A program made the position numbers and the translations under genes. A stretch of DNA of 64,000 nt from Eledone cirrhosa (lineage: Eukaryota), in NCBI GenBank assembly GCA_964016885.1, contig OZ024753.1, positions 46,686,001 to 46,750,000 on the forward strand, read 5' to 3'. Below, in pieces: positions 30,789 to 53,823 of the stretch (its first letter is position 1; the number at the start of each line of letters is the position of its first letter). The notes beneath the pieces were generated by a model, which had not been told where the DNA came from, ran no database searches, and was given only the letters and a program-made list of their open reading frames with translations.

Positions 30789-30802
30789 GTTGTCATGGTA
30801 AC
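30789..30802. promoter_or_regulatory. RFX X-box motif GTTGTCATGGTAAC
   Basis: 14/14 match to GTHNYYATRRNAAC inside a ~180-bp non-repetitive island between microsatellites. Confidence 0.4.
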
Positions 30803-30961
30803 ATTCACCCGTTGTCCAAAGTTTGACCATTTTCTCAAGGGCCCTGCCAGAAGCATTTCACAATTATCAGCAAATTCCTTGCGTAAATATACTCTCGTGT
30901 TTGTCTATTGATCTCTATATGTGTATATGTATATGTGTGTATGGATGGATGTATGTGCATG

Positions 30962-39202: not shown

Positions 39203-39331
39203 AAGACAGAAAGTTGTTTGTCGGCATGCTCAATAAACAGCAAACAGAAGATGACATACGTCAGTTATTTCAGCCTTATGGAACGATTGAAGAATGCACA
39301 ATACTGCGAGATCAAAATGGAAATAGCAAGG
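39203..39331 (+). CDS. CELF: Internal coding exon of a CELF/Bruno-like RNA-binding protein (CELF3-6 / bru3 type), first part of RRM2
   Basis: Pyrimidine tract + tacAG acceptor (39201-39202) and G|GTAAGA donor at 39332. 129 nt, phase 1/1. Translates (E)[42 protein letters not shown](G), with RNP2 LFVGML, matching CELF3-6 RRM2 as I recall it. The paralogue number cannot be assigned. Confidence 0.95.
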
Positions 39332-40448: not shown

Positions 40449-40528
40449 GTTGTGCGTTTGTCAAGTTCTCTACTCATGCTGAGGCACAGGCAGCAATTAA
40501 TGCTCTCCATGGTAGTCAAACAATGCCA
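40449..40528 (+). CDS. CELF: Next coding exon of the same CELF/Bruno-like gene, second part of RRM2
   Basis: ccttgcAG acceptor and CCA|GTAAGT donor at 40529. 80 nt, phase 1/0, in frame with the previous exon. Translates (G)[26 protein letters not shown], completing RNP1 KGCAFVKF. Confidence 0.95.
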
Positions 40529-41631
40529 GTAAGTAGCAAATGATAGAATCATCTGCCGAAAACTAATTTCCTTTTTCTTTTGTTCTATATATTTATTGGA
40601 TTATTATTATCATTATTAGTAATATTATTATTAATAATAACATTAATAATATTGTTATTTTTGGGGATGGTCATGTTGCCAAAATTTCCAATAAAAACAC
40701 ACGCACTATTTGATTTTTCACTTCAGCTTTATTATTATCTATTCGTTAGTTCATCAAAATATTTTCATCACACATTCTGTGACCTCCTCAATGACTATTT
40801 CTTTTCCTCTGTGCCTCCACTTCTTTCTTATTTTGTTTACTCCATCTTGTCTTTCTGTGTTATTTTTTCTCGTCTGTGCATGCATTTGTATCTGTACCTG
40901 TGTGTGTGTCTATGTGTTTGGCATGTGTATGTGCGTCTTGTCTGCGTGTATGGGTTTGTATGTTCCTCTGTTTGTGGGTTCCTATGTTTTTTTTATGTTT
41001 TTATGTGTCCTATTCTATTGTCAGTCATTAGGTTGTGGGGTAGGGGTCTTACTATTCCATTCATGTTTTCCTTTAAGGTTCAGTCTTCTCTATTATATGG
41101 ATGGCCTCAGTAATTTGTCTGAGCATTGGGCTGATTCTATGTGTGGATAGAATTTTTACTTTAATGTTATCTAATGAGCCACCATGTTCTAGTTTCGTTT
41201 GTTGGTATAGCACAGATGAGCTTTTCTTCTATTTGAATTCTCACCAGTGTTCCTTCATCCTCTCTCCTATACTACAAACTGTCTCGCCTATATATGTTGT
41301 TGACATGTTTCTACACCAACCTCTGTAGACCTTATCCTATAGATTACATTCCTAGTTTTGCAGTTAACCTTTGGGCTTACCTTATATACTATACAGTTAC
41401 TATCAGTACAGGGGATTTTCTTAAAATGGTATGTCCTCCTGATTAAACTACCTGTGTTAGCTATAAAACCCTGGTTGGAAACTAAGACTGACAAAGCCCA
41501 TATCCTCCATTCCCATTATGCTAAACCCATGGCCTCCAAATACCTTGGAGCTAGTAATTTCATATAGTGTTAAGTTCAATATCTAAGTCCGCTTTCGCTA
41601 AGAAAAATGTGTCCCTCATGTGCAATCCAAC

Positions 41632-41891
41632 ATGCAGTTCTCTGGATACAACCAAAGAGACAAGATCAGGATAAATTAAAAACCATTATGAAGAATGATG
41701 TGAATGGGATTTTCCTGTTATACAAGAGCAAATCATGGAATAGTATAGAAAGAACTAAGATAGAGGAGGTGTGACAACCAAAAATGTCAGTCATGTTCGT
41801 CAATGCTACCCCAAAAGGTGAACTAGCACATCGATTTAGGAGAGCTCGAGATAGACTGGACCTTAGGATTAAAGTGGTAGAAAAGACAGGT
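41632..41891 (+). mobile_element. Penelope-like element fragment (post-RT thumb/linker region), disrupted
   Basis: Pieces MQFSGYNQRDKIRI, NDVNGIFLLYKSKSWNSIER and SVMFVNATPKGELAHRFRRARDRLDLRIKVVEKTG resemble the region between RT and GIY-YIG in PLEs. Confidence 0.6.
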
Positions 41892-42489
41892 TAAGAGGAA
41901 GAGGAAGAAGCAGGATGTGGTCTGTGATGACCCATCCAACCCTTGCTAGCAGAAAAAAACAGATGTTAACTGATGATGATGAGAGGGGTGTGATAATGAT
42001 GATGAGAGGGGTTGTGATGCTGATGATGAGAGTGGTTGTATTGGTGATGATGATGATGATAAAAATATTGATGATGTCACCAGATGGAAACCACATTCCA
42101 GTTTTTTGCATTGTATTGTTTGCCAATATATTTCCATTCTTCATTGCTGTTGCCAAAATAACATTTACAGTCTAAAATTTCCTGAAATTCATTTAAACAA
42201 TTTTCCATTAGGTAAACATGAGTGAGTATGTACACCTGATAAGCTAAGTCTATGATATATATATATATAGCACAAGTAGAAATAGCTACTGTACATACTC
42301 GAATATAAGCCAACCCTCTATTCTGTCTGAGAAATGGGCAAAAAGTGCAACCCTGTGTATAAGTTGAGGCAGTTAATCAAAACATTATGTTTAGATGGTG
42401 TAGTTTTGAAATTCTCATGACTGGAGAATATATTTACGAAGTTTTAATATTTTGAACAATCAATGAGTTCTTCCCTAACTAGTATAAGT

Positions 42490-42746
42490 GTCTGGATTAT
42501 GCATGAATGGAACAGTCAAAGGAGCTACTTTGCTCCATGCAGCCCTAATCTATTGTTTGTTTGTGGCTTTTGCATGTTGGTGATTAAAGCCTCTTTGATA
42601 CTAGAGGCAACAGAAAGGAGTGAGGGAAATTTAAATATCAAAGAGGCTCTAATCAGCAACACGCAAAAGCCTCAAATAAACAATAGATTAGAGTTACATG
42701 AAGAAGAGTGGCTCCTATGACTGCTCCATGCATGTGTAATTCAGAC
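42490..42746. repeat. Imperfect long inverted repeat (111-bp arms, 35-bp spacer); old MITE or fold-back
   Basis: 42490-42600 aligns without gaps to the reverse complement of 42636-42746 at roughly 80-85% identity by eye. Confidence 0.85.
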
Positions 42747-43724
42747 TGTGCTTAAAAAGACCTGTTCAACCCATGCAAGCATGGAAAAATGGATGTAAAA
42801 AGGATGATAATAGTGACGTCACATATACATATACCCCATACTGTGTTGTTATACCTGTTTATGTGAATGTCTGTGTGTGTCTGTGAATGTGTGTGTATGC
42901 CTGTGAATGTCTGTATGTGTGAAGTTGTATAAAATTTGATGGGGAGGGAGTTCATAGTAAGTAATGGCTTAGACAAAAGCCAAAGTTAATCTAGCCATAG
43001 TTACAATAAGGTCTGTTAATCACTTGTTAATCACTCATTAATCTCCCACATAATAATTATAATTAAACTAATCCAACAACATTTTAATGAGATTTTTCAG
43101 TGTTTTTTTTTGTTTTGTTTTTGTTGCTTTTCACATTCCCCTTCCCCACCTCATCATTTATTTCATAAAATTGGACAGCTTAATGATTTTGGGGTGGTTT
43201 GTTTTAATTCTTTTCTCCGTGTGTTTGTGTGTAGGTCTGTTTGTGTATGGGGGTGGTGCACATGTGTGTGTCTCAGTGTCAATGTGTGCACATGCATGTG
43301 TGAGTGTTTGCACATATGTGTGTGTCTGTATCTGCCTGTGTACACATTTGTATATGTACATTTGTCTGTATACACATGTGTATGTGTATCTGTTTGTGAC
43401 ACATCTGTGTGTATCTGTCTGTGTACACATCTGTGTGTATCTGTCTGTGTTTGTGTGTGTTTATGTATACATGTGTACATGTATCTATCTGTGTACACGT
43501 GTGTGTGTGTGTGTGTGTTTTAGAATTAAATTGTATCAAATACAAGGGAACAAAGCATAACAATAATGATTGCTTTTAACATAGGTACAAGACCAGAGAT
43601 TTCAATGTTTTGGGGATAGACAAAAATACTGACACCAGTGTTTCACTGGTACTTTGTTTTATTGACACCTATAAGATGAAAGGTAAATGATAATGATAAT
43701 AATTAATAATAATAATAATAATTG

Positions 43725-43960
43725 ATGTAAGCATACCATCAGATCGTAATATCTCCTCGAAAGGGTTCTGATAATTAAGATCTGATAATTAAAATTGAGA
43801 AAATGGGGCATCTTAAAACCTGTACAATACCAGTGATAGTCGGTGCACTTGAAATGATAGAAAAGGGAACTGAAAAATATTTGACCAGATACCTAAAAAA
43901 CCATCTGTGCAAGAGATACAGAAAATAGTGCTGACTGGCACTGCCCTTGTCCTGTCAATT
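43725..43960 (+). mobile_element. R4/Dong-like LINE fragment
   Basis: IDVSIPSDRNISSK..TIPVIVGAL..IQKIVLTGTALVL directly after (AAT)n. Confidence 0.7.
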
Positions 43961-46139
43961 TAATTACCTTGCAAAAACATTTACTGTTATTTGTGACCTT
44001 CTGGCATCATCTATATGACAAGTGATTGTAAAATGTGTGTATTAAGCAAATTTTGCCTCAGGTGTATGGTTGACTCTCAGCAAGATATGGAAGAGAAGCA
44101 GAATTCAAAGGAAGTTTCAAATAATAATAATAGTAATTCATTTTATTTGCCACAAGGGCACTGAATGAAGAAGATATTACCAAGACAAATTACATAAAGT
44201 ATGGTTAGTTTACATAAAAATCAGATTACAAAAATTATAATTAAAGTATATACAGTATACATGATGGTAAACAGTCCCCTTTTTACAGGAGAACCCCCAA
44301 TAGGGATGATTGAGGGGCACCACAAACTCACAATCACCCTGATCACCACGGGCAAATGTTCTCTTCCAATTTTCCTTCTGTGACCTACAAGCCCATGTTG
44401 AGATTAGAACCATTCAATCTTGCTATTTTCGCCACAGTCACCTACCTTTTATAAAATGGAGGAGAGAAAGCCCTTCTCTACTCACATGTTTTATTTTAAA
44501 TGGAACTTGACATATTCAATAAAAGTGTCAGTCCCAGTTCTTTGAACCTTCTCCACCACATGACCTCTTTTGCTCTAGCCCTCACACAAAGAAAAACTGC
44601 CAACCCTTCCCAGTTATGGGAAGCCAGTGGGATGCTCTTCACAATGAACTCAGCCAATAGCCAAATCTGTCCTACTTGTAACAGCAATCATTTGACATAG
44701 CTCCATAGGTCAGTAATGCCTGGACATTGAACAGAGCTCCACAGGTCAGTAATGCCTGGACATGTGATATTATATAATAAAGGAATGCTTGATAAGAGAA
44801 ATCAACTCATTCTTAATTGTAGTCATAAGATACTGAAAATGTTTAGCAAACTTAAAAAAGCAATAATGTAGATACTAATACCTATATGAGAGAGGAATGG
44901 TATATGCTTTGGGATTTACTTCTTCTCCATATCGGAATGTCGATATGATGCGTAAACATAGATTATGTGTAAAAAAATTGTAATTATAGGAAAGCTGTAA
45001 CAACCATAGTCTAAATAGGATTGTGATCCCTGATATAAGTAAACAATAACATGTATTACCAAGTGGAAACAGAAACCAGGGAATAGTTGGGATGCATGGT
45101 TGTACAATGATATTGATAATCTTTACATTCCTAAATCAATGTCTGCTATCTCTCCTGCCCATAAAATATCCCTTTTGTTTTGTTAGTCAGAATATATAGG
45201 TAATGTTGATTTAATCATTTTATATCTCTCATTTATTATTTTAATTAATATTAATCCAGCTAATTTTATTAGTATAATTGTTGCAACTTAAACGGCCAGT
45301 GAAATATTATTTGCATTATATATATTTTTAATCATTATTTTTATATTATTAGAAATACGTGTTTTATTATGGTCTGAGTTCCTAAGCACATAACATATTG
45401 TATCACATGAAACCACATAGCAAGACATTCTTGAAAATTACAAAATAGAACTATGACTGTATTACATTAAAAATTAAAATCTTTATTTTAATACTACAAA
45501 TTTTCACAATGATCTGCCCATCAGTAAAGATAATATAAACATCTCAATGAACGAACTTTTAAAATATTTTCTGCTAAGTCATTAATATTATGAGTTAATC
45601 TGTAAACATTTTATAGTTATATTAAATAGTCCCTTTTTATTATACACTTCTGAGGGGATTTATTGCTCTTAGGTTGCCTTATTCATCATCTTGGTGCCTT
45701 AGTTTATGTTCCTTTTATTCCCTTCTGATGAGGGACAAAGGGGGAAGCTATAAGTATTTCACCACAACAAAAACAATGAAAAGATACATTTATGCCACAA
45801 AAATGTTTGACCAACCAATGAAATGAATCTTAAACGATATTGTTGCACCAAGGGAATAATGTGGTATGGCCTGCAGAAGGGACTGAGTTTACTTACATCT
45901 TTTCTGTGTTCTCAGTTCAAATCCTGTTTATAGTTAACTCTGCTATTTATTCATTTGAGGTCAATAAAAATACCAACCAGTAATATGCTGGAGAATCAGT
46001 TAAACACACAATACTTCCTCCTTCTTCTACTTGCATCTGAGAAATGTCAACATCACCATTATTGTCATCATCATCATCATTATCATTAATATTATCATTA
46101 GTATTATTATTATCATTGTTGTTATTATTATTATTATTC

Positions 46140-46870
46140 CATTAAGTCTTTGAATGTCTTGTTTTCATCACATACCACTGGGTCCACACCATAGTCCTGA
46201 TGTTATACAAGGTATATATGTTGAGGACAGCACCTTCCTCTGTACTATGTGCTCTTTTTAGCAGGTTTGTTTTTTGAAGTTCTTATAAGGTGATGTTTTC
46301 TGAGATGCTGTATTCTTCCGGTTCCTTTTTTATTAATGCAACTCCTCTAATCCCTACTAGTATGGTTTAGGTGGCCATGACCCACAATCTGGAGATCTCA
46401 GTCTCAAGGTCTTTATATTTAGATGGTTTTTCTGTGAACTTATGTGATATGGTCTACTGTTCTTGCCATATCAATCACAACTTTTATCTTTGTAGCTTTT
46501 AATTATGATGGCTGGCCTGTTTGCTTTGATTTCCATATCTGTATGTACTTGTAAGTCCCATAGGATAGTATCATTATCCTTCTTAACAACTATTTCTGGT
46601 TTTTGGTCATACCATTTTTCCGAGATTTTGATGTTATACTCCCTGCTGATTTTCCATTGTTGGTTTACTGCTGTCTTGTGGTAGATATATTTATTTTGGT
46701 GGCAGCCAGAGATAATGTGGTCAGTAGTTTCTTCAAAGGATCCAAATATCCTACACATTTTGTCCATGCCATGTTTGATGAGGCAATGGTGATATGACCT
46801 GGTGCTAAAACTTTGATGTTCATCAACAATGATAAAACCATTTTGTCTGTTACTGGCTACCATCTGTCTC
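46140..46870 (-). mobile_element. R4/Dong-like (restriction-like endonuclease) non-LTR retrotransposon 3' fragment
   Basis: QSFSTRSY..DKMCR....ETTDHIISGC..KWYDQKPEIVV..ILWDLQVHTDMEIKANRPAII..KYKDLETEISRLW; next to (TTA)n. Confidence 0.85.
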
Positions 46871-47213
46871 TTTAAACCTTTCTCATTATTTTCCATGGAT
46901 AATGTTTTTCTTCGTAGTTTTTCCTTATTTGTTTTTTTTTTTGTTTTATTCTGCAGGCAAAAATGTTGTTGCTTCATTTTCATTCATGTTAATTCAGAGA
47001 AATTGAATTCTTGTGAGAATGTTTGTATTCTTTCATTATTGAATATAAATTCCTCTTGCTTTCCTGATAAATAAATGATTAAAGAAATCATTATTATTAT
47101 TATGGCTCATTTTTGTAAATCTCAGTCACTTAGATGTTAAATGATCTGGATATTTCAGTTAGGGAACAGTCAACAAGTTGACAAAGGTCACTCACTACAT
47201 ATTCTCCTGTGCA

Positions 47214-47720
47214 TTACATAGACAAGACTTTCCTTAAAATCCTTGCTGTACCCAGAAGTGCTGTCTTCTGCATGACCTGTAACCTTGCATCGGTTCCAAT
47301 TTTATTCACACAGTCATCAAAATGTCTGATATATATCCCAATATTCTGATCACCACCGGAATCACTAAAACCTTCTTCACCCCCCCACCCCTCATAACTT
47401 TCCAACCTCCTCCTCCAGTGGCTCCTCCTTTTCCATCTTTTCATGCTCTTCTGAAGGATTCTTGCCATTCCCAGAATGCATTTCTGCAACAGTCTATCCC
47501 AATCATCCAGGTCTCAATCCTTTCTCTTACTCTGCCAAGTCAATCAATAACAATTGCTATGATTATGACTTTCTTCAGGTTCCACTGTTCAGCTATTTCC
47601 TACTTCAATGGGTTGTAGTTGGTCAATTTTTGTTCCTTTGCTCAATTCTTATGTCAAATGGACATGATGGGTCTATGATAAGAATTTTCTTGACATTATC
47701 CTCAACTATAAACGGGAAAA
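47214..47720 (-). mobile_element. R4/Dong-like LINE 3' fragment
   Basis: Reverse strand ends in MQKTALLGTARILRKVLSM*, with an upstream RPG*LG*TVAEMHSGN segment. Confidence 0.7.
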
Positions 47721-49594
47721 CCTGGGGTGGGTCTGCAGCTTTGAACCTGGAGAGGCAGATCCATGCCATCTAACAACATCGTGGGGCACTAGTTAAATTG
47801 CTCAGGGTCTAGTTTGGTCCAGATATCCATTTGAACATAAACTAGGATGAGGTGATGAGCAGAATGGCTAGTCTCAGGTTGAGAGGAAGTTGTTCCTGAG
47901 AGTGGTGAAAGTCTACATCACTGCCATCATTTATTATTGCCTAATCACTATGGCTTACCGGAGTTCATGTCTCATTAGACTGGGATATCTGCTCTTTCAC
48001 TTTTTGTGAAAGTGATATGTTCCACAGGTCAAACAGTCTACTGTCAACACCTGCTGCACGTGCTATGGTTGATGAGAAGCAGACATGCTGAGGCTCAAAC
48101 ATCTCCAGTGTTTCCTTGATAGTTAATATCTGTTGTCACTGTCAAATGTGTCTTTCTTCAGCTCAGCTTTATAACAGAGTTGCAATAGTGAGACAAGCAA
48201 AGACAGGGCACTTGACAACTGAAATGTTATCAAATGCTCACCTTTGCCAGGTAAGCAATGATGTTAGTGAAAGTTCCACTTTGATAGTCTGTAGACTATT
48301 TGTTTGTTTTTGTTTTCATTATTTCTGTTTTACAAGTTTTCCTGTAAACCCACTCTCTATTGACCTATACCTCCCTTCATCTTGATGTAAACCCTTGTGT
48401 TTGATAAAGAAATTATTATTATTATTATGTCTGTAGGTCAATTGACAAATGGAAGAGGGCATTCGCCCTTGGTGGTTAAGATGATTATATATCCCTGGGG
48501 TTCATCAATTAGCCTTAAGTATCCAGCTTTCTATACCAGGAGGACTCAATACCTTATATAATTGTATACTATGTACAACTAACTTGTATACTTGTTACTA
48601 ATTTTATAATTTTATAATTTCTATGTAAACCTTAATTTGTCTAACTTGTCTTTGTAAAGTCTCCTTCATTTGATGCCTTTGTGGCAAGTAAAAAAAATTA
48701 TAAGGGCAATGGATTTACAGTATCAGTAGAGCATCAAACAAAATGCTTTCTGGCATATAGTTATGGCCCTTTATCTTCTGAATTCCAATTCTGCTGAGGT
48801 CAGTTTTGCCTATCATCCTTATGGGGTCGATAAAATAAAGTACCAGTAATGCACCGGGATTAATATAATCAACATTCCTCTCCCATTCAAATTGCTGGCC
48901 TTGTGCCAAATATAGAAACAATTATTATCACTATTACATGGTCTTGTGCCTATGTAGAAAATTATCTTTATTACTACTACTTCTATTTATTACTATTACT
49001 ACTAATATACATAAACAGGTTTAACATGACATATAAAAGACAGGTACACCAACATTTTTCTGGCAATTAATGGTCCAGCGCCTCTGTATAGTATCTGGAT
49101 GTAATTATGAGTGGACACATGAATTTCCCATAACCCATCAGAGTAGCTAATTCACATTAGAAGGTTTCCACAAGATAATTGAGTTAACGCTTTTGATACC
49201 AAACTGCCTGAAACTGCCCCCGGTTCTATTATACAATATTGTTTGTTTTAAATCATGTTTCAATTTAAACTTTCCATTATCATTTTTTGTAAGAACTTAA
49301 AAATAAGAAAGTTATTTAGATTACTAAATCCCTCCACATTTTTTGATATTTTAAAAATTAATTGAAAAACATTAAAAATATAGTAATCAGTTAAGAGATC
49401 TACTTGTATTATAGCTGAGGGGTACAAAGAGATTTTCTGGCATCATATGTTTCTAGGAAATTATCTAGTCTGGCAAAATGGATAATCTGACATAGAATAA
49501 ACCTGCTGGAAAATTGGTGGTGTACCTGTAGTGTGTTTCATTCAATTCTTCAGATCTTGAGACTCTGCTCGTGTCACTTATTAAATGCCAATTC

Positions 49595-49664
<70 letters not shown>

Positions 49665-49690
49665 GAAGTGGTTACACAACAGTTAGTTCA

Positions 49691-49740
49691 CCATACCGAG
49701 AACAATTGTTTCACCTTAGCGGATCTTCAGCTCGTAATGG
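49691..49740 (-). ncRNA. Minimal type I hammerhead ribozyme (left arm of a fold-back element)
   Basis: Minus strand reads CCATTACGAG-CTGAAGA-TCCGCTAAGGT-GAAAC-AATT-GTT-CTCGGTATGG. Stem I is 4 bp + 2x2 loop + 4 bp, stem III is the palindrome ACAATTGT, and the triplet is GUU. Confidence 0.7.
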
Positions 49741-49770
49741 ACATGGTTATACTGTTCCGTATAACCATGT

Positions 49771-49820
49771 CCATTACGAGCTGAAGATCCGCTAAGGTAA
49801 AACAATTGTTCTTGGTATGG
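49771..49820 (+). ncRNA. Mirror hammerhead copy with core mutation (GAAA to AAAA), probably inactive
   Basis: CCATTACGAG-CTGAAGA-TCCGCTAAGGT-AAAAC-AATT-GTT-CTTGGTATGG; the catalytic G12 is replaced by A. Confidence 0.6.
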
Positions 49821-49992
49821 TGAACTAACTGTTGTGTAACCACTTCTACCTAACTCGTCCCATGGACTGAGTGCTCTACCACTACGGATATTACCTTCCA
49901 GTGTTCTACCACTATATATATATATATACTGAAGTAAAAGTTAAGTGGAAATATCCAAGAGTAAGAGCACTCAGTCCATAGGACGAGTGTAG

Positions 49993-50220
49993 TATAAATA
50001 ATTACAACAGTGACATAAAAAGGTACTCAAGTTTCGTTGGGTTCTGGGCCCTAATTCATTCAGCCTGTCATGAGAAAAATAAAAACGAAGATGGCCGCCA
50101 TAGGCGTCCCCATGGCGGCCATCTTCGTTTTTATTTTTCTCATGACAGGCTGAAGGAATTAGGGCCCAGAACCCAACGAAACTTGAGTACCTGTTTATGT
50201 CACTGTTGTAATTATTTATA
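49993..50220. repeat. Fold-back palindrome, 109-bp arms
   Basis: 49993-50101 is the reverse complement of 50112-50220 with two mismatches seen; loop region AGGCGTCCCC. Confidence 0.95.
50141..50199 (+). ncRNA. Hammerhead-like motif with a variant 8-nt core (mirror copy on - strand at 50014-50072)
   Basis: Stem I CATGACAGG/CCTGTTTATG; core CTGAAGGA (mirror CTGAATGA); stem II TT(A)GGG/CCCAA; GAAAC-TTGA-GT-A giving a GUA triplet. Confidence 0.55.
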
Positions 50221-51008
50221 TATTTATATATATATATATATACACACTCACACACATACACACATTTCCTTCCCTCTCCCCCTTTATTTTATTGATTTTA
50301 TGTATATTTTGCTTTTTTGTTTGTATGGGTATTTCTTTTAATTTTGGAAATGTTTTTCAAATGTATTTATATTTTTTCATTGTTCTATTTATTATTTATA
50401 TATTTATTTATTTGTTTTATTTATTACATTTATTCACTGCCTCCTTCTTTGGAGTGTAAAGAATTTGGAGTAACCATGAATTAAATGATAGAGAAACATG
50501 CAAAGAGAGTGTTGGGGTGAGAGAAAAATGAGAGAGATTAATAGAAGGGAAAGAGTAAAAAGAGGTGGGAAGAAACTAGTATTGATGTAAAATTAAACCA
50601 TAGGTACAAACAGACAGACAACTAGAGAGAGAGAAGGAAGGAGAGAGACAAGAACTTCAACTATATAGAATGGATAAGAAATAGTGAGAGAAAAATATGT
50701 GAAGAAAATTAAGAGAAAGTTTAGTAGTTGAAAGATATAAAATTTTTTGTGGCAGTTGTTTTTTTCTTCCGAGGATTCTAAAATGATTTGAGTTGTGTGT
50801 GTGTGTTTACATATCTGTATACGTTTGTATAAATGAAGTGTAAATACATTCAACTATTCCTCCATACACAGAAAAATATGCACACACATGTTGCATCTAA
50901 GAAACCTTAGATATTAGCATAATGTATTAACTTTAACTCAATAAGTTATCTATACTCTACTTTGCATTCTTTTATTCATCACCATAAATGCATATATATA
51001 TATATATA

Positions 51009-51082
<74 letters not shown>

Positions 51083-51693
51083 GTCTTCCAACAAAATATC
51101 TATATATATCTATATTATTATCTATAGTTCAGAAAAAAATATTTTTCAGAGAAAGAAAAGACTCAATATTTGAGGTCAAGAGTGAATATTAATTTATTTT
51201 GTGATATTTAATTACATTTGTACAAGTGTTTCATCATCATCATCATCGTCGCCGTGATCATCATCATCGTCGTCGCCATCATCATTTTTATTTTACATCT
51301 GCCATCCATGATTGCATGGTATATTTTGAAAAGTTCTGCCTTTTCAACCTTTGAAAATAGCACCTATTCATAGAAACACTTGCAGAAATGTAAAAGAAAC
51401 ATCACACAGTAAATCATATACGTATGTGTGTGAGTATGTGAATGTGTCTCCGTGTGTGTGTTTGCATGTCTTTGTGTGTGTGCGCGCACATGTGTGTGTG
51501 TGCGCATGTGTATTAAAATCCTTCCTGCCAAAAAATAATGCAACAAAAAATACGCCTCATCTATACTCCGACTTCTAATCCTCTGGTCACTCGCCCCCCA
51601 CCACCACCACCATTACCTCCAGGCTGAACGGTGGGGACGTGGGTGACTGGATCAGTGAATTTTTTGTTTTATTTTTCCTTTTATCTGTTCCAG

Positions 51694-51732
51694 GAGATGC
51701 TGAGATTTGAAGTGGCCGAAATAGCCCACCAG
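51694..51732 (+). CDS. Candidate 39-nt cassette exon (EMLRFEVAEIAHQ) of the CELF gene
   Basis: About 30-nt pyrimidine tract + ttccAG, then CAG|GTACAT donor. Length is 13 codons. Only phase 0 is stop-free, which matches the phase of the upstream donor at 40529. No homology support. Confidence 0.45.
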
Positions 51733-51752
51733 GTACATCTTCTAGTACTAGG

Positions 51753-51817
<65 letters not shown>

Positions 51818-53823
51818 TTACTACTACTACTAACACAAATCAGCGTGTGTGGGTGAGGGTGGATGGTTGAAGAGGTGGTGGGTGGGCGGCTGTCACCAAT
51901 AAGAGTGAAGGGCAAAGGGATAAAGGGGTAAAAAAAATGAGGGCTACAATAGTTGGACAGTCCAGATTGCTGGTATTTGTGGTGGTGGTGGTGGTCGTCG
52001 TTGTTGTAGTGGTGGTGGTGGTGGTGGTGGAGGTGGTGGTTTGTTGTTGTTGTTGTCAGTGGTGGTGGTGGTGGTGGTGGTGGTGGTGGTGGCTGTTCTT
52101 GCTGTTTTCTTTAAAACAATGACGGTGGTGGTGGTGCTGGTGGTGGTGGTAGTAATTGGTGATGGTGGTGGTGGTGGTGGTGGTGGTGGTGGTGGTAGTA
52201 ATTGGTGGGCTGGTTTGTTGTTCTTGTTGTTGTTGTTGTTGCTATGGTGGTGGTTGGGATTGTGCTGAGGGTGGTGGGGGAGCAGTGGTTGTAGTGGTAT
52301 TCATTTAGTTTGTTGTTGTTGTTTATGTTGCAGTGGTGGTGGTGACCGTACCAGTTGTGGCAGTGGTGCTTGTGGCAGTGGTGCTTGTGGTAGTGGGGGT
52401 AGGGGTAGTAGTGGTGGTGGTGGAGGTAATATTGGGGAGGGTATAAGTTTAGTTCTAGATAATATGGTGGTGTTGGTTATGGCTACAGGTTTGGCAATGG
52501 GTGGTGATGGTGGTGGTGGTGGTGGTGGACCTCCACCCCTCTAGCTGTTCTTCCCCACTCCCTTTCTATCACCTCTCTGCTTTCTTGTTTTCCTGTTGTG
52601 TAAATGATTATTTTATGTGTAAAATTATTTAATATTTAATTAACCAACTAGTTTGTAATTAATTCTGTTGTCATGAGTTTTGTTTATCATTAAAAAGGTC
52701 CTTTAGTAAAAGAGACCCTCTTCATAAATATACATGTTTGAAATTGTTAATCCTATAATGATGGGTTTTCATTGATTTTGGTGATGAGCATTCATTTGTT
52801 TGATTAACTGAATGTCCAGCTTGTGAATTAATATATAAGTGGTTGAATATTCCACAGACACATGTACCCATAACATTCTCATATTAAATCAGCCTCACAC
52901 AATATGAATTACAGGTACAATTCTTCTGATTAGCTTCCATACATTTATTTAATTTCACACACAAGGCTTTGATTGATCTGTGGCTGTAGTATATACATTT
53001 TTCTAAGATGCCACACAGATAGATTGAACTTGGCACTTCATGGTTGTGAAGTAAACCTCACATCAACTTAGCCATGCTTACATTCAATACCATGATACTA
53101 TGACCTTAAACACTGTCACATTACACCTCTCTACAAAATGAAATGATTACAAAACTAAAATAAAGTTATGTCATGTCTTTAGTCATTGGTTTCTCCCCCC
53201 CCCCCCAAAAAAAAATGGGTGATCTCTGGGTATTAACTGACAACCTCCAAACTCTAGATAAAAACTGATTTAGACCTTAACAACTTATCCAACCCATGCC
53301 AGCACAGAAAAGCAGGTGTAAAATGATAATGTTACTATAGAAATAACAAAATTCTCTAAGATTAATTGAAGAAACTCAATAATGTTTTGGGAATAGTAAA
53401 TTGTAACCAGTCTAAGATTTTGTTCTTTTTAATTTTGGAGTTGTATTTGTTTGGCAAGTGCCATGATTTCAGACTGTGTTGAAACTGAAATAATTACATT
53501 ATGAGAACAAAATTAAACAAAATGTGCAGAAGGTCTATTATATATATTAACTCTTCATTTATTTCACAGTGCCAATATTTTCATTGCTCTGAAATTGTCA
53601 GTGACTAGGTCGCAAGGAGTGTGACAAAAATACTGACACCATAAAATATAAGAGAAGTAATGTAATGTAATTAAGATTTTCAATGTTCTAGCTTATTTAT
53701 TTCTGATCGCTCCTCATAAAACTCTGATGAAGACAAAAAAATGTAACATCAACAACAACAGTAATAATGATGATGATGATGATAATAATAATAATATTTC
53801 ATTTATTGGCCACAAGGTCCGAC

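Follow-up and report, generated by a model that had tools for sequence, protein, structure and literature searches.

Intron sequence is rich in splice-like signals, and the locus studied here raises the question of whether a 39-nt segment far inside an intron of a CELF gene of Eledone cirrhosa is a genuine exon and, if so, what 13 additional residues would do to the second RRM (RRM2) of the protein. We address this question with a 64,000-nt stretch of genomic DNA, referred to below as the window.

The host gene and its long intron

The coding frame around the segment is set by two exons:

39203 to 39331, plus strand: 129-nt exon that codes for the first half of RRM2 in a CELF3-6 protein, phase 1 to 1, with a 100% match to P0001, P0325, P0343 and P0322 (tblastn or search)
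40449 to 40528, plus strand: 80-nt exon coding for RNP1, helix 2 and the first part of the loop that leads to β4, phase 1 to 0, ending after QTMP

By its RRM2 sequence, the gene is of the CELF3-6 type. The translation of 39203-39331 is 100% identical to the CELF3 model of O. bimaculoides, and the named proteins among the best 120 matches are of the CELF3/4/5 type, the rest being without a name. The full-length relatives P0343 and P0001 each display three RRM_1 stretches; of the gene itself, the window contains only the RRM2 exons. These relatives share the three RRMs and divergent linker of the CELF3-6 subfamily (vertebrate CELF3/4/5/6, fly Bru3 and worm UNC-75), and solved relatives of RRM2 include 2dno, 2dnk and 2dnh. 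The next exon, which begins with GASSS, is absent from the 64-kb window, and the intron after 40528 therefore exceeds 23 kb. The initial annotation had placed an insertion at the QTMP junction, before the last β-strand of RRM2. This placement holds: the upstream exon ends in phase 0 after QTMP, and the loop that receives the insert connects helix 2 to β4. The Pfam RRM_1 match stops before this junction, so the insert lies outside its reach.

Upstream of these exons, positions 30795-30905 show 67% resemblance to the N-terminus of XP_029639833.1, the O. sinensis model, which would start from a first exon inside an intron and lack RRM1. In O. vulgaris and Sepia, too, the models begin just before RRM2, each with a different N-terminus. 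These RRM1-less N-termini of cephalopod models may be annotation gaps or may reflect internal promoters.

A 39-nt segment with exon-like boundaries

The segment and its flanks comprise the following elements:

51660 to 51693, plus strand: pyrimidine tract and AG acceptor, ranked 1 of 1117 AGs and used in RNA-type contigs
51694 to 51732, plus strand: alternative cassette exon of 39 nt and 13 residues, identified from sequence, RNA-type contigs and gene models
51733 to 51738, plus strand: weak 5′ splice site GTACAT, with a junction to GASSS in four cephalopod gene models and a contig end of run X1 at 51733
51733 to 51870, plus strand: read-through region with a Thr/Ala repeat, in an open frame and covered by contigs to 51755

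Frame 0 of 51694-51732 reads EMLRFEVAEIAHQ, while frames 1 and 2 contain stops. Splice sites were ranked across 40530-63800 with a crude matrix that was not trained on the host species. The acceptor, a CAG directly before 51694 that follows the pyrimidine tract and precedes GAGATG, takes the first rank, and the donor at 51733 ranks 31st among 1466 GTs. The segment is the sole acceptor/donor pair of at most 150 nt that matches both of its scores, with no such pair on the opposite strand. The coordinates, the length, the strong acceptor and the frame, open only in the phase set by the upstream exon, thus stand as first proposed. The proposed CAG/GTA donor fares less well: GTACAT does directly follow 51732, but the site is mediocre by rank and read-through is seen. 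The 39-nt form contains no stop codon. Past 51732, the frame stays open for 45 further codons to a stop at 51868-51870, and an in-frame alternative donor at 51853, which scores above the 51733 donor (4.9 vs 2.6, same matrix, pairs up to 200 nt), would make a 159-nt exon.

The upstream exon is joined to the segment in RNA-type contigs

A search for sequencing runs yielded eight, and for none of them is RNA recorded as the source. Four small runs, from 2 samples of 1 study (organism A), were guessed to be RNA; of the others, three contain the sequence in full (organism B) and one contains part of it (organism C). Over 51510-51755 we compared X8, a run of a second species, and three of the four RNA-type runs, X1, X2 and X3, whose species label differs from that of the organism B runs and which have no library on record.

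In all three RNA-type runs, contig cover starts exactly at 51694, and the 30 nt that precede this position are the end of the 40449-40528 exon (29 of 30 identical, by eye). The 40528-51694 junction, on which the initial annotation had staked its exon, is present in 3 of 3 of these runs, their RNA status being guessed. Upstream of 51694 the contigs carry 239, 239 and 210 letters, of which 30 are displayed; these lengths would fit both upstream exons in spliced form (80 + 129) plus 30 or 1 letters.

By their length, the contigs would end 30 or 1 letters upstream of 39203, a hint that transcripts may branch between RRM1 and RRM2, where inserts are annotated in other molluscs. At 40519, all three RNA-type runs carry G against A in the window, a silent difference at the third base of a Gln codon that may be a species difference or A-to-I editing. 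Each RNA-type contig also has one further difference within 51694-51755.

At the downstream boundary, the main contig of X1 (depth 86.8) breaks off at 51733, and another X1 contig (depth 7.8) starts at 51704 and extends 380 letters beyond 51755, giving a 30-letter overlap at the donor. This break would fit a branch at 51733 if the next exon begins with G. X2 and X3 continue through the donor to 51755 plus 27 letters. A spliced branch downstream of 51732 is not displayed in the X1-X3 contigs, where a branch sharing 30 letters cannot show, and no skipping branch is seen in X1-X3, whose contigs drop variants and give no inclusion level. The junction from 51732 to GASSS appears in four cephalopod gene models and agrees with the one contig break at 51733, alongside the read-through; on the strength of the models and the break, the donor is probably used in cells.

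Read-through itself could instead be the main outcome. If the acceptor were used and the weak donor often ignored, the transcript would run to the stop at 51868 or to the 51853 donor, and the main product would be a shut-off or truncated form, destined for decay or translated into a protein that lacks the native β4, the linker and RRM3. Read-through contigs occur in 3 of 3 RNA-type runs, with no other path displayed for X2 (depth 99) or X3 (depth 25), the 23 nt past the donor are identical to the window in X8, and the 51733 donor is weak beside the stronger in-frame site at 51853. On the other side, the X1 read-through contig reaches only one tenth of the upstream depth, and the 39-nt form is found in the models of four species. 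Downstream of the exon, AATAAA is absent up to 53159 and ATTAAA up to 52689. No canonical poly(A) signal lies within 900 nt, and cDNA synthesis on pre-mRNA could have been primed internally at the A8 run at 51930. A weak search for a protein with the read-through tail found none among 8 candidates at E up to 10. We consider truncation as the main product unlikely. The read-through contigs are probably for the most part partly spliced pre-mRNA; alternatively, they may reflect splicing at the 51853 donor or a transcript end within the intron.

The exon is conserved and alternative in cephalopods

Conservation in the second species' run extends beyond the exon on both sides:

51597 to 51755, plus strand: block conserved in X8, with 0 substitutions and 1 gap in 51661-51755 and 5 in 58 in 51597-51654

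The difference between the 94-nt block at 51661-51755 and the flank at 51597-51654 gives a Fisher p of 0.007 in X8, and the exon alone gives p 0.08. A second acceptor lies at 51623, 71 nt upstream of the exon, in a region that is still about 90% conserved in X8. It ranks 7 of 1117, is uncovered in the RNA-type contigs and, paired with the 51733 donor, would make a frame-shifting 110-nt exon.

Automatic gene models from species other than that of the window contain both the included and the skipped form. The exact 13 residues stand between QTMP and GASSS in CAI9726416.1 (O. vulgaris), XP_029639833.1 (O. sinensis) and GAB1600093.1 (Argonauta hians), and Sepia pharaonis CAE1146045.1 has 12 of the 13, with a single conservative change from Ile to Leu. 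The exon is skipped in CAE1146047.1 and CAE1146051.1 (both Sepia), in one unlabelled Logan protein and in O. bimaculoides XP_052825816.1. Inclusion and skipping are therefore evenly divided over the cephalopod-type proteins (4 of 8 each), and both occur within Sepia pharaonis (1 included model, 2 skipped).

A protein search built to favour inserts at the QTMP junction gave 105 proteins with an insert, 2 without and 2 unmatched. The full set of 507 fetched proteins, insert-enriched by design, comprises 4 with the cephalopod insert, 177 with another insert, 216 with none and 110 unmatched by the pattern. All four carriers are named cephalopods, and the 13-residue insert is absent from the other 503. 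The isoform had been put forward as lineage-specific, and within this biased sample it is. In a set of 150 distant representatives, the pattern matched 70, and 63 of these have the plain loop, which makes the skipped length the family default.

The split of octopods from cuttlefish dates back some 270-300 million years. The initial annotation had named a lack of conservation as grounds for doubt; the peptide is instead kept from octopods to cuttlefish, in a set that holds included and skipped models. The exon is almost certainly real and alternative, and, judged from the aligned letters, it is frame-preserving and conserved. A single origin in cephalopods, through exonization of sequence within the very long intron, is probable. 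The idea that the exon was copied from the beginning of the next one finds no support (ungapped score -4, p 0.16). Homology to the NGH-type insert of Lineus and Pecten was considered and dropped, as no such peptide lies behind a good acceptor in the intron. A repeat origin was likewise set aside, the sole matching element within the window being a CAC microsatellite upstream of the exon.

The exon is already contained in automatic annotations, so that what is new here is the evidence and the comparison, not the sequence. In the published literature searched, the exon is undescribed and the peptide itself is without any match; the supplements of bioRxiv 10.64898/2026.09.05.749416 fell outside this search and may list it. 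The parts consulted of PMC9068888, PMC13326565, PMC4978528 and bioRxiv 10.64898/2026.09.05.749416 do not mention the exon.

The same junction receives inserts in many animals

The fetched CELF models contain 51 distinct inserts at the QTMP/GASSS junction, of which two are the cephalopod variants. The others come from bivalves, snails, a ribbon worm, a brachiopod, crustaceans, an insect, fish, sharks, a frog and a lizard, and their sequences are unrelated. As in cephalopods, the automatic models of Lineus, Pecten, Haliotis, Mytilus, Penaeus, Daphnia, a caddisfly, teleost celf4/celf5a, sharks, a frog and a lizard place 3-41 in-frame residues between QTMP and GASSS, but these inserts are unrelated to the cephalopod exon and mostly Ser/Pro-rich. 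Many begin with Val or end in Gln and are likely splice-site shifts rather than cassettes. Neither these inserts nor the read-through past the donor figured in the initial annotation.

In Drosophila, Kandul and Noor (2009; PMC2767349) describe bru-3 exon 8, a 57-nt exon that is restricted to the obscura group, is supported by RT-PCR and lies between the 80-nt exon 7 and exon 9. Like the cephalopod exon, it is a lineage-restricted, frame-preserving cassette, here in an intron of roughly 42-46 kb. Its upstream neighbor, exon 7, ends the annotated RRM and resembles the 40449-40528 exon of the window in its 80 nt and in its phases (1 to 0). Because exon size and phases match, the fly intron is likely homologous to that of the window; the paper does not give the protein junction of exon 8. 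The two exons also differ. The fly exon starts CAG/GT in a recursive-splice-like manner, unlike the cephalopod exon, and the two have no resemblance by eye; exon 8 is a minor form of one species group, whereas the cephalopod exon ranges from octopods to cuttlefish (PMC2767349 for the fly). The Drosophila and cephalopod exons were likely gained independently in what is likely the same intron.

Neural microexons offer a second comparison, being likewise short, frame-preserving, conserved and located in a domain loop. Published definitions allow up to 27 nt in the strict sense and up to 51 nt in the wide one; at 39 nt, the cephalopod exon fits the wide definition only. A study of tissue-specific exons that covers O. 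bimaculoides (bioRxiv 10.64898/2026.09.05.749416) reports recurrent gain of neural exons in the same genes across animals.

So many unrelated inserts at one junction imply that the site tolerates insertions without a specific function, and the exon might be no more than a tolerated by-product: it would provide a splice-site stepping stone across the very long intron, and its peptide would do nothing. The fly case points the same way, as bru-3 exon 8 is a minor form traced to splice sites suggested for recursive splicing (PMC2767349, as far as consulted). Against this, cuttlefish and octopods share 12 of the 13 residues and differ by one conservative change, and X8 shows no substitution in the exon. 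Recursive splicing calls for an AG with an immediate GT, and the cephalopod acceptor is followed by GA, so the junction is not of the recursive type. A by-product is improbable on this evidence, and the exon is an alternative cassette exon of a CELF3-6 gene, not a recursive-splicing exon.

The insert is predicted to enlarge a loop of RRM2

The included form was modeled with AlphaFold on the Argonauta protein, with an alignment of 40 rows of which 4 carry the insert, a composition that favours the native β4. The model retains strands at 144-148, 169-176 and 182-190 and keeps the native β4 at 230-233. Residues 210-226 fall below pLDDT 50, and the insert is looped out. The closest structural matches of this model are CELF1/2 RRM1-2. 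In human CELF1, RNA binding perturbs β1, β3 and residues in β4 and the preceding loop (PMC3201864, in part), and mutation of RRM2 in the worm ortholog UNC-75 impairs splicing regulation (PMC3585155, in part).

We propose that the 39-nt cassette exon would lengthen the helix 2-β4 loop by its 13 residues, that RRM2 would stay folded with its native β4 despite the insert, and that the insert would tune RNA binding or protein contacts at the edge of RRM2 rather than destroy the domain. Tuning appears likelier than loss because AlphaFold keeps the native β4 and loops the insert out at low confidence. A folded RRM2 with an enlarged loop, which would tune binding or add a contact surface, is the reading we prefer with moderate confidence, on account of the predicted fold, the β4 and loop shifts of CELF1 and the UNC-75 RRM2 mutant (the latter two from PMC3201864 and PMC3585155). 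The 51 distinct inserts at the QTMP junction, many of them unrelated, count against it.

A bolder possibility is that the peptide acts as an alternative β4, which would compete with or replace the native strand, create a new RNA-binding edge and complete RRM2 in read-through forms. The hydrophobic pattern of the insert is β-type and then helix-type. Its residues 3-8 score 6.4 against the β4 profile of RRM3, where the native RRM2 β4 scores 5.3; this value ranks second among the 51 distinct inserts (shuffle p 0.02, fixed register), although the idea arose post hoc and p becomes 0.16-0.26 over all registers. Residues 6-11 score 6 against the native β4 (p 0.04), a register that disagrees with the first. 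When the native β4 is removed, AlphaFold places insert residues in a strand, and residues 1-81 of the resulting model align to CELF1 106-187 (Z 13.6, rmsd 2.4, 81 aligned), with no control insert for comparison. That strand has a pLDDT of only 62-65 by block, and with the native β4 present the insert is looped out. The alternative strand is thus quite doubtful. The same low expectation applies to the scheme that could be built on it, in which splicing would switch the strand completing RRM2 and alter which RNAs the main neural CELF of cephalopods recognizes, donor read-through would give a short two-RRM competitor without linker and RRM3, and independent exonization of the same intron in flies and many animals would mark a recurrent tuning point of CELF3-6. 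Chance splice-like sequence with no exon at all, conceivable given that AG/GT pairs abound in AT-rich introns, can practically be dismissed because the exact junction is present in RNA-type contigs and the peptide in the models of four species.

Implications for cephalopod regulation

Cephalopod molecular diversity is usually framed in terms of RNA editing and gene expansion. The exon described here is a small, conserved and directly testable candidate splicing switch in a cephalopod regulator. Since CELF3-6 proteins control many splicing and mRNA-fate decisions, mostly neuronal (PMC13326565), an isoform switch in one RNA-binding domain of such a protein could shift a whole programme. With a likely homologous intron exonized in Drosophila as well, the RRM2 loop also becomes a test case for recurrent exon gain.

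Motifs and repeats around the exon

Two flanking elements are candidates for regulation of the exon:

51313 to 51468, plus strand: two TGCATG motifs (51313, 51463) seen in the sequence, candidate Rbfox-type regulatory motifs outside the compared interval 51510-51755
51950 to 52349, plus strand: GGT/TTG microsatellite tract, a putative CELF-type binding surface

Both TGCATG motifs are present where the initial annotation had reported them. Across the window this motif has no strand enrichment (30 plus vs 27 minus), and at least two copies within 400 nt upstream are found for 2.7% of window positions. The GGU-rich tract reported downstream is also present, as a GGT microsatellite; its 57 GGT in 51950-52349 are equalled by no sampled 400-nt window on either strand, but 10% of plus-strand windows reach its TGT density. 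Predicted RNA structure over 51597-51755 is nothing unusual (z -0.26).

Just past the donor, positions 51757-51835 contain ACT and CTG repeats and one ACTAAC, which are ordinary microsatellites in the window and which we take to resemble MBNL/CELF and Quaking sites. Two near-perfect fold-back repeats, at 49663-49848 (90-nt arms, 98%) and 49993-50220 (112-nt arms, 97%), lie 1.5-2 kb upstream of the exon. Both would form long hairpins in the pre-mRNA, and they are possible editing substrates or small mobile elements.
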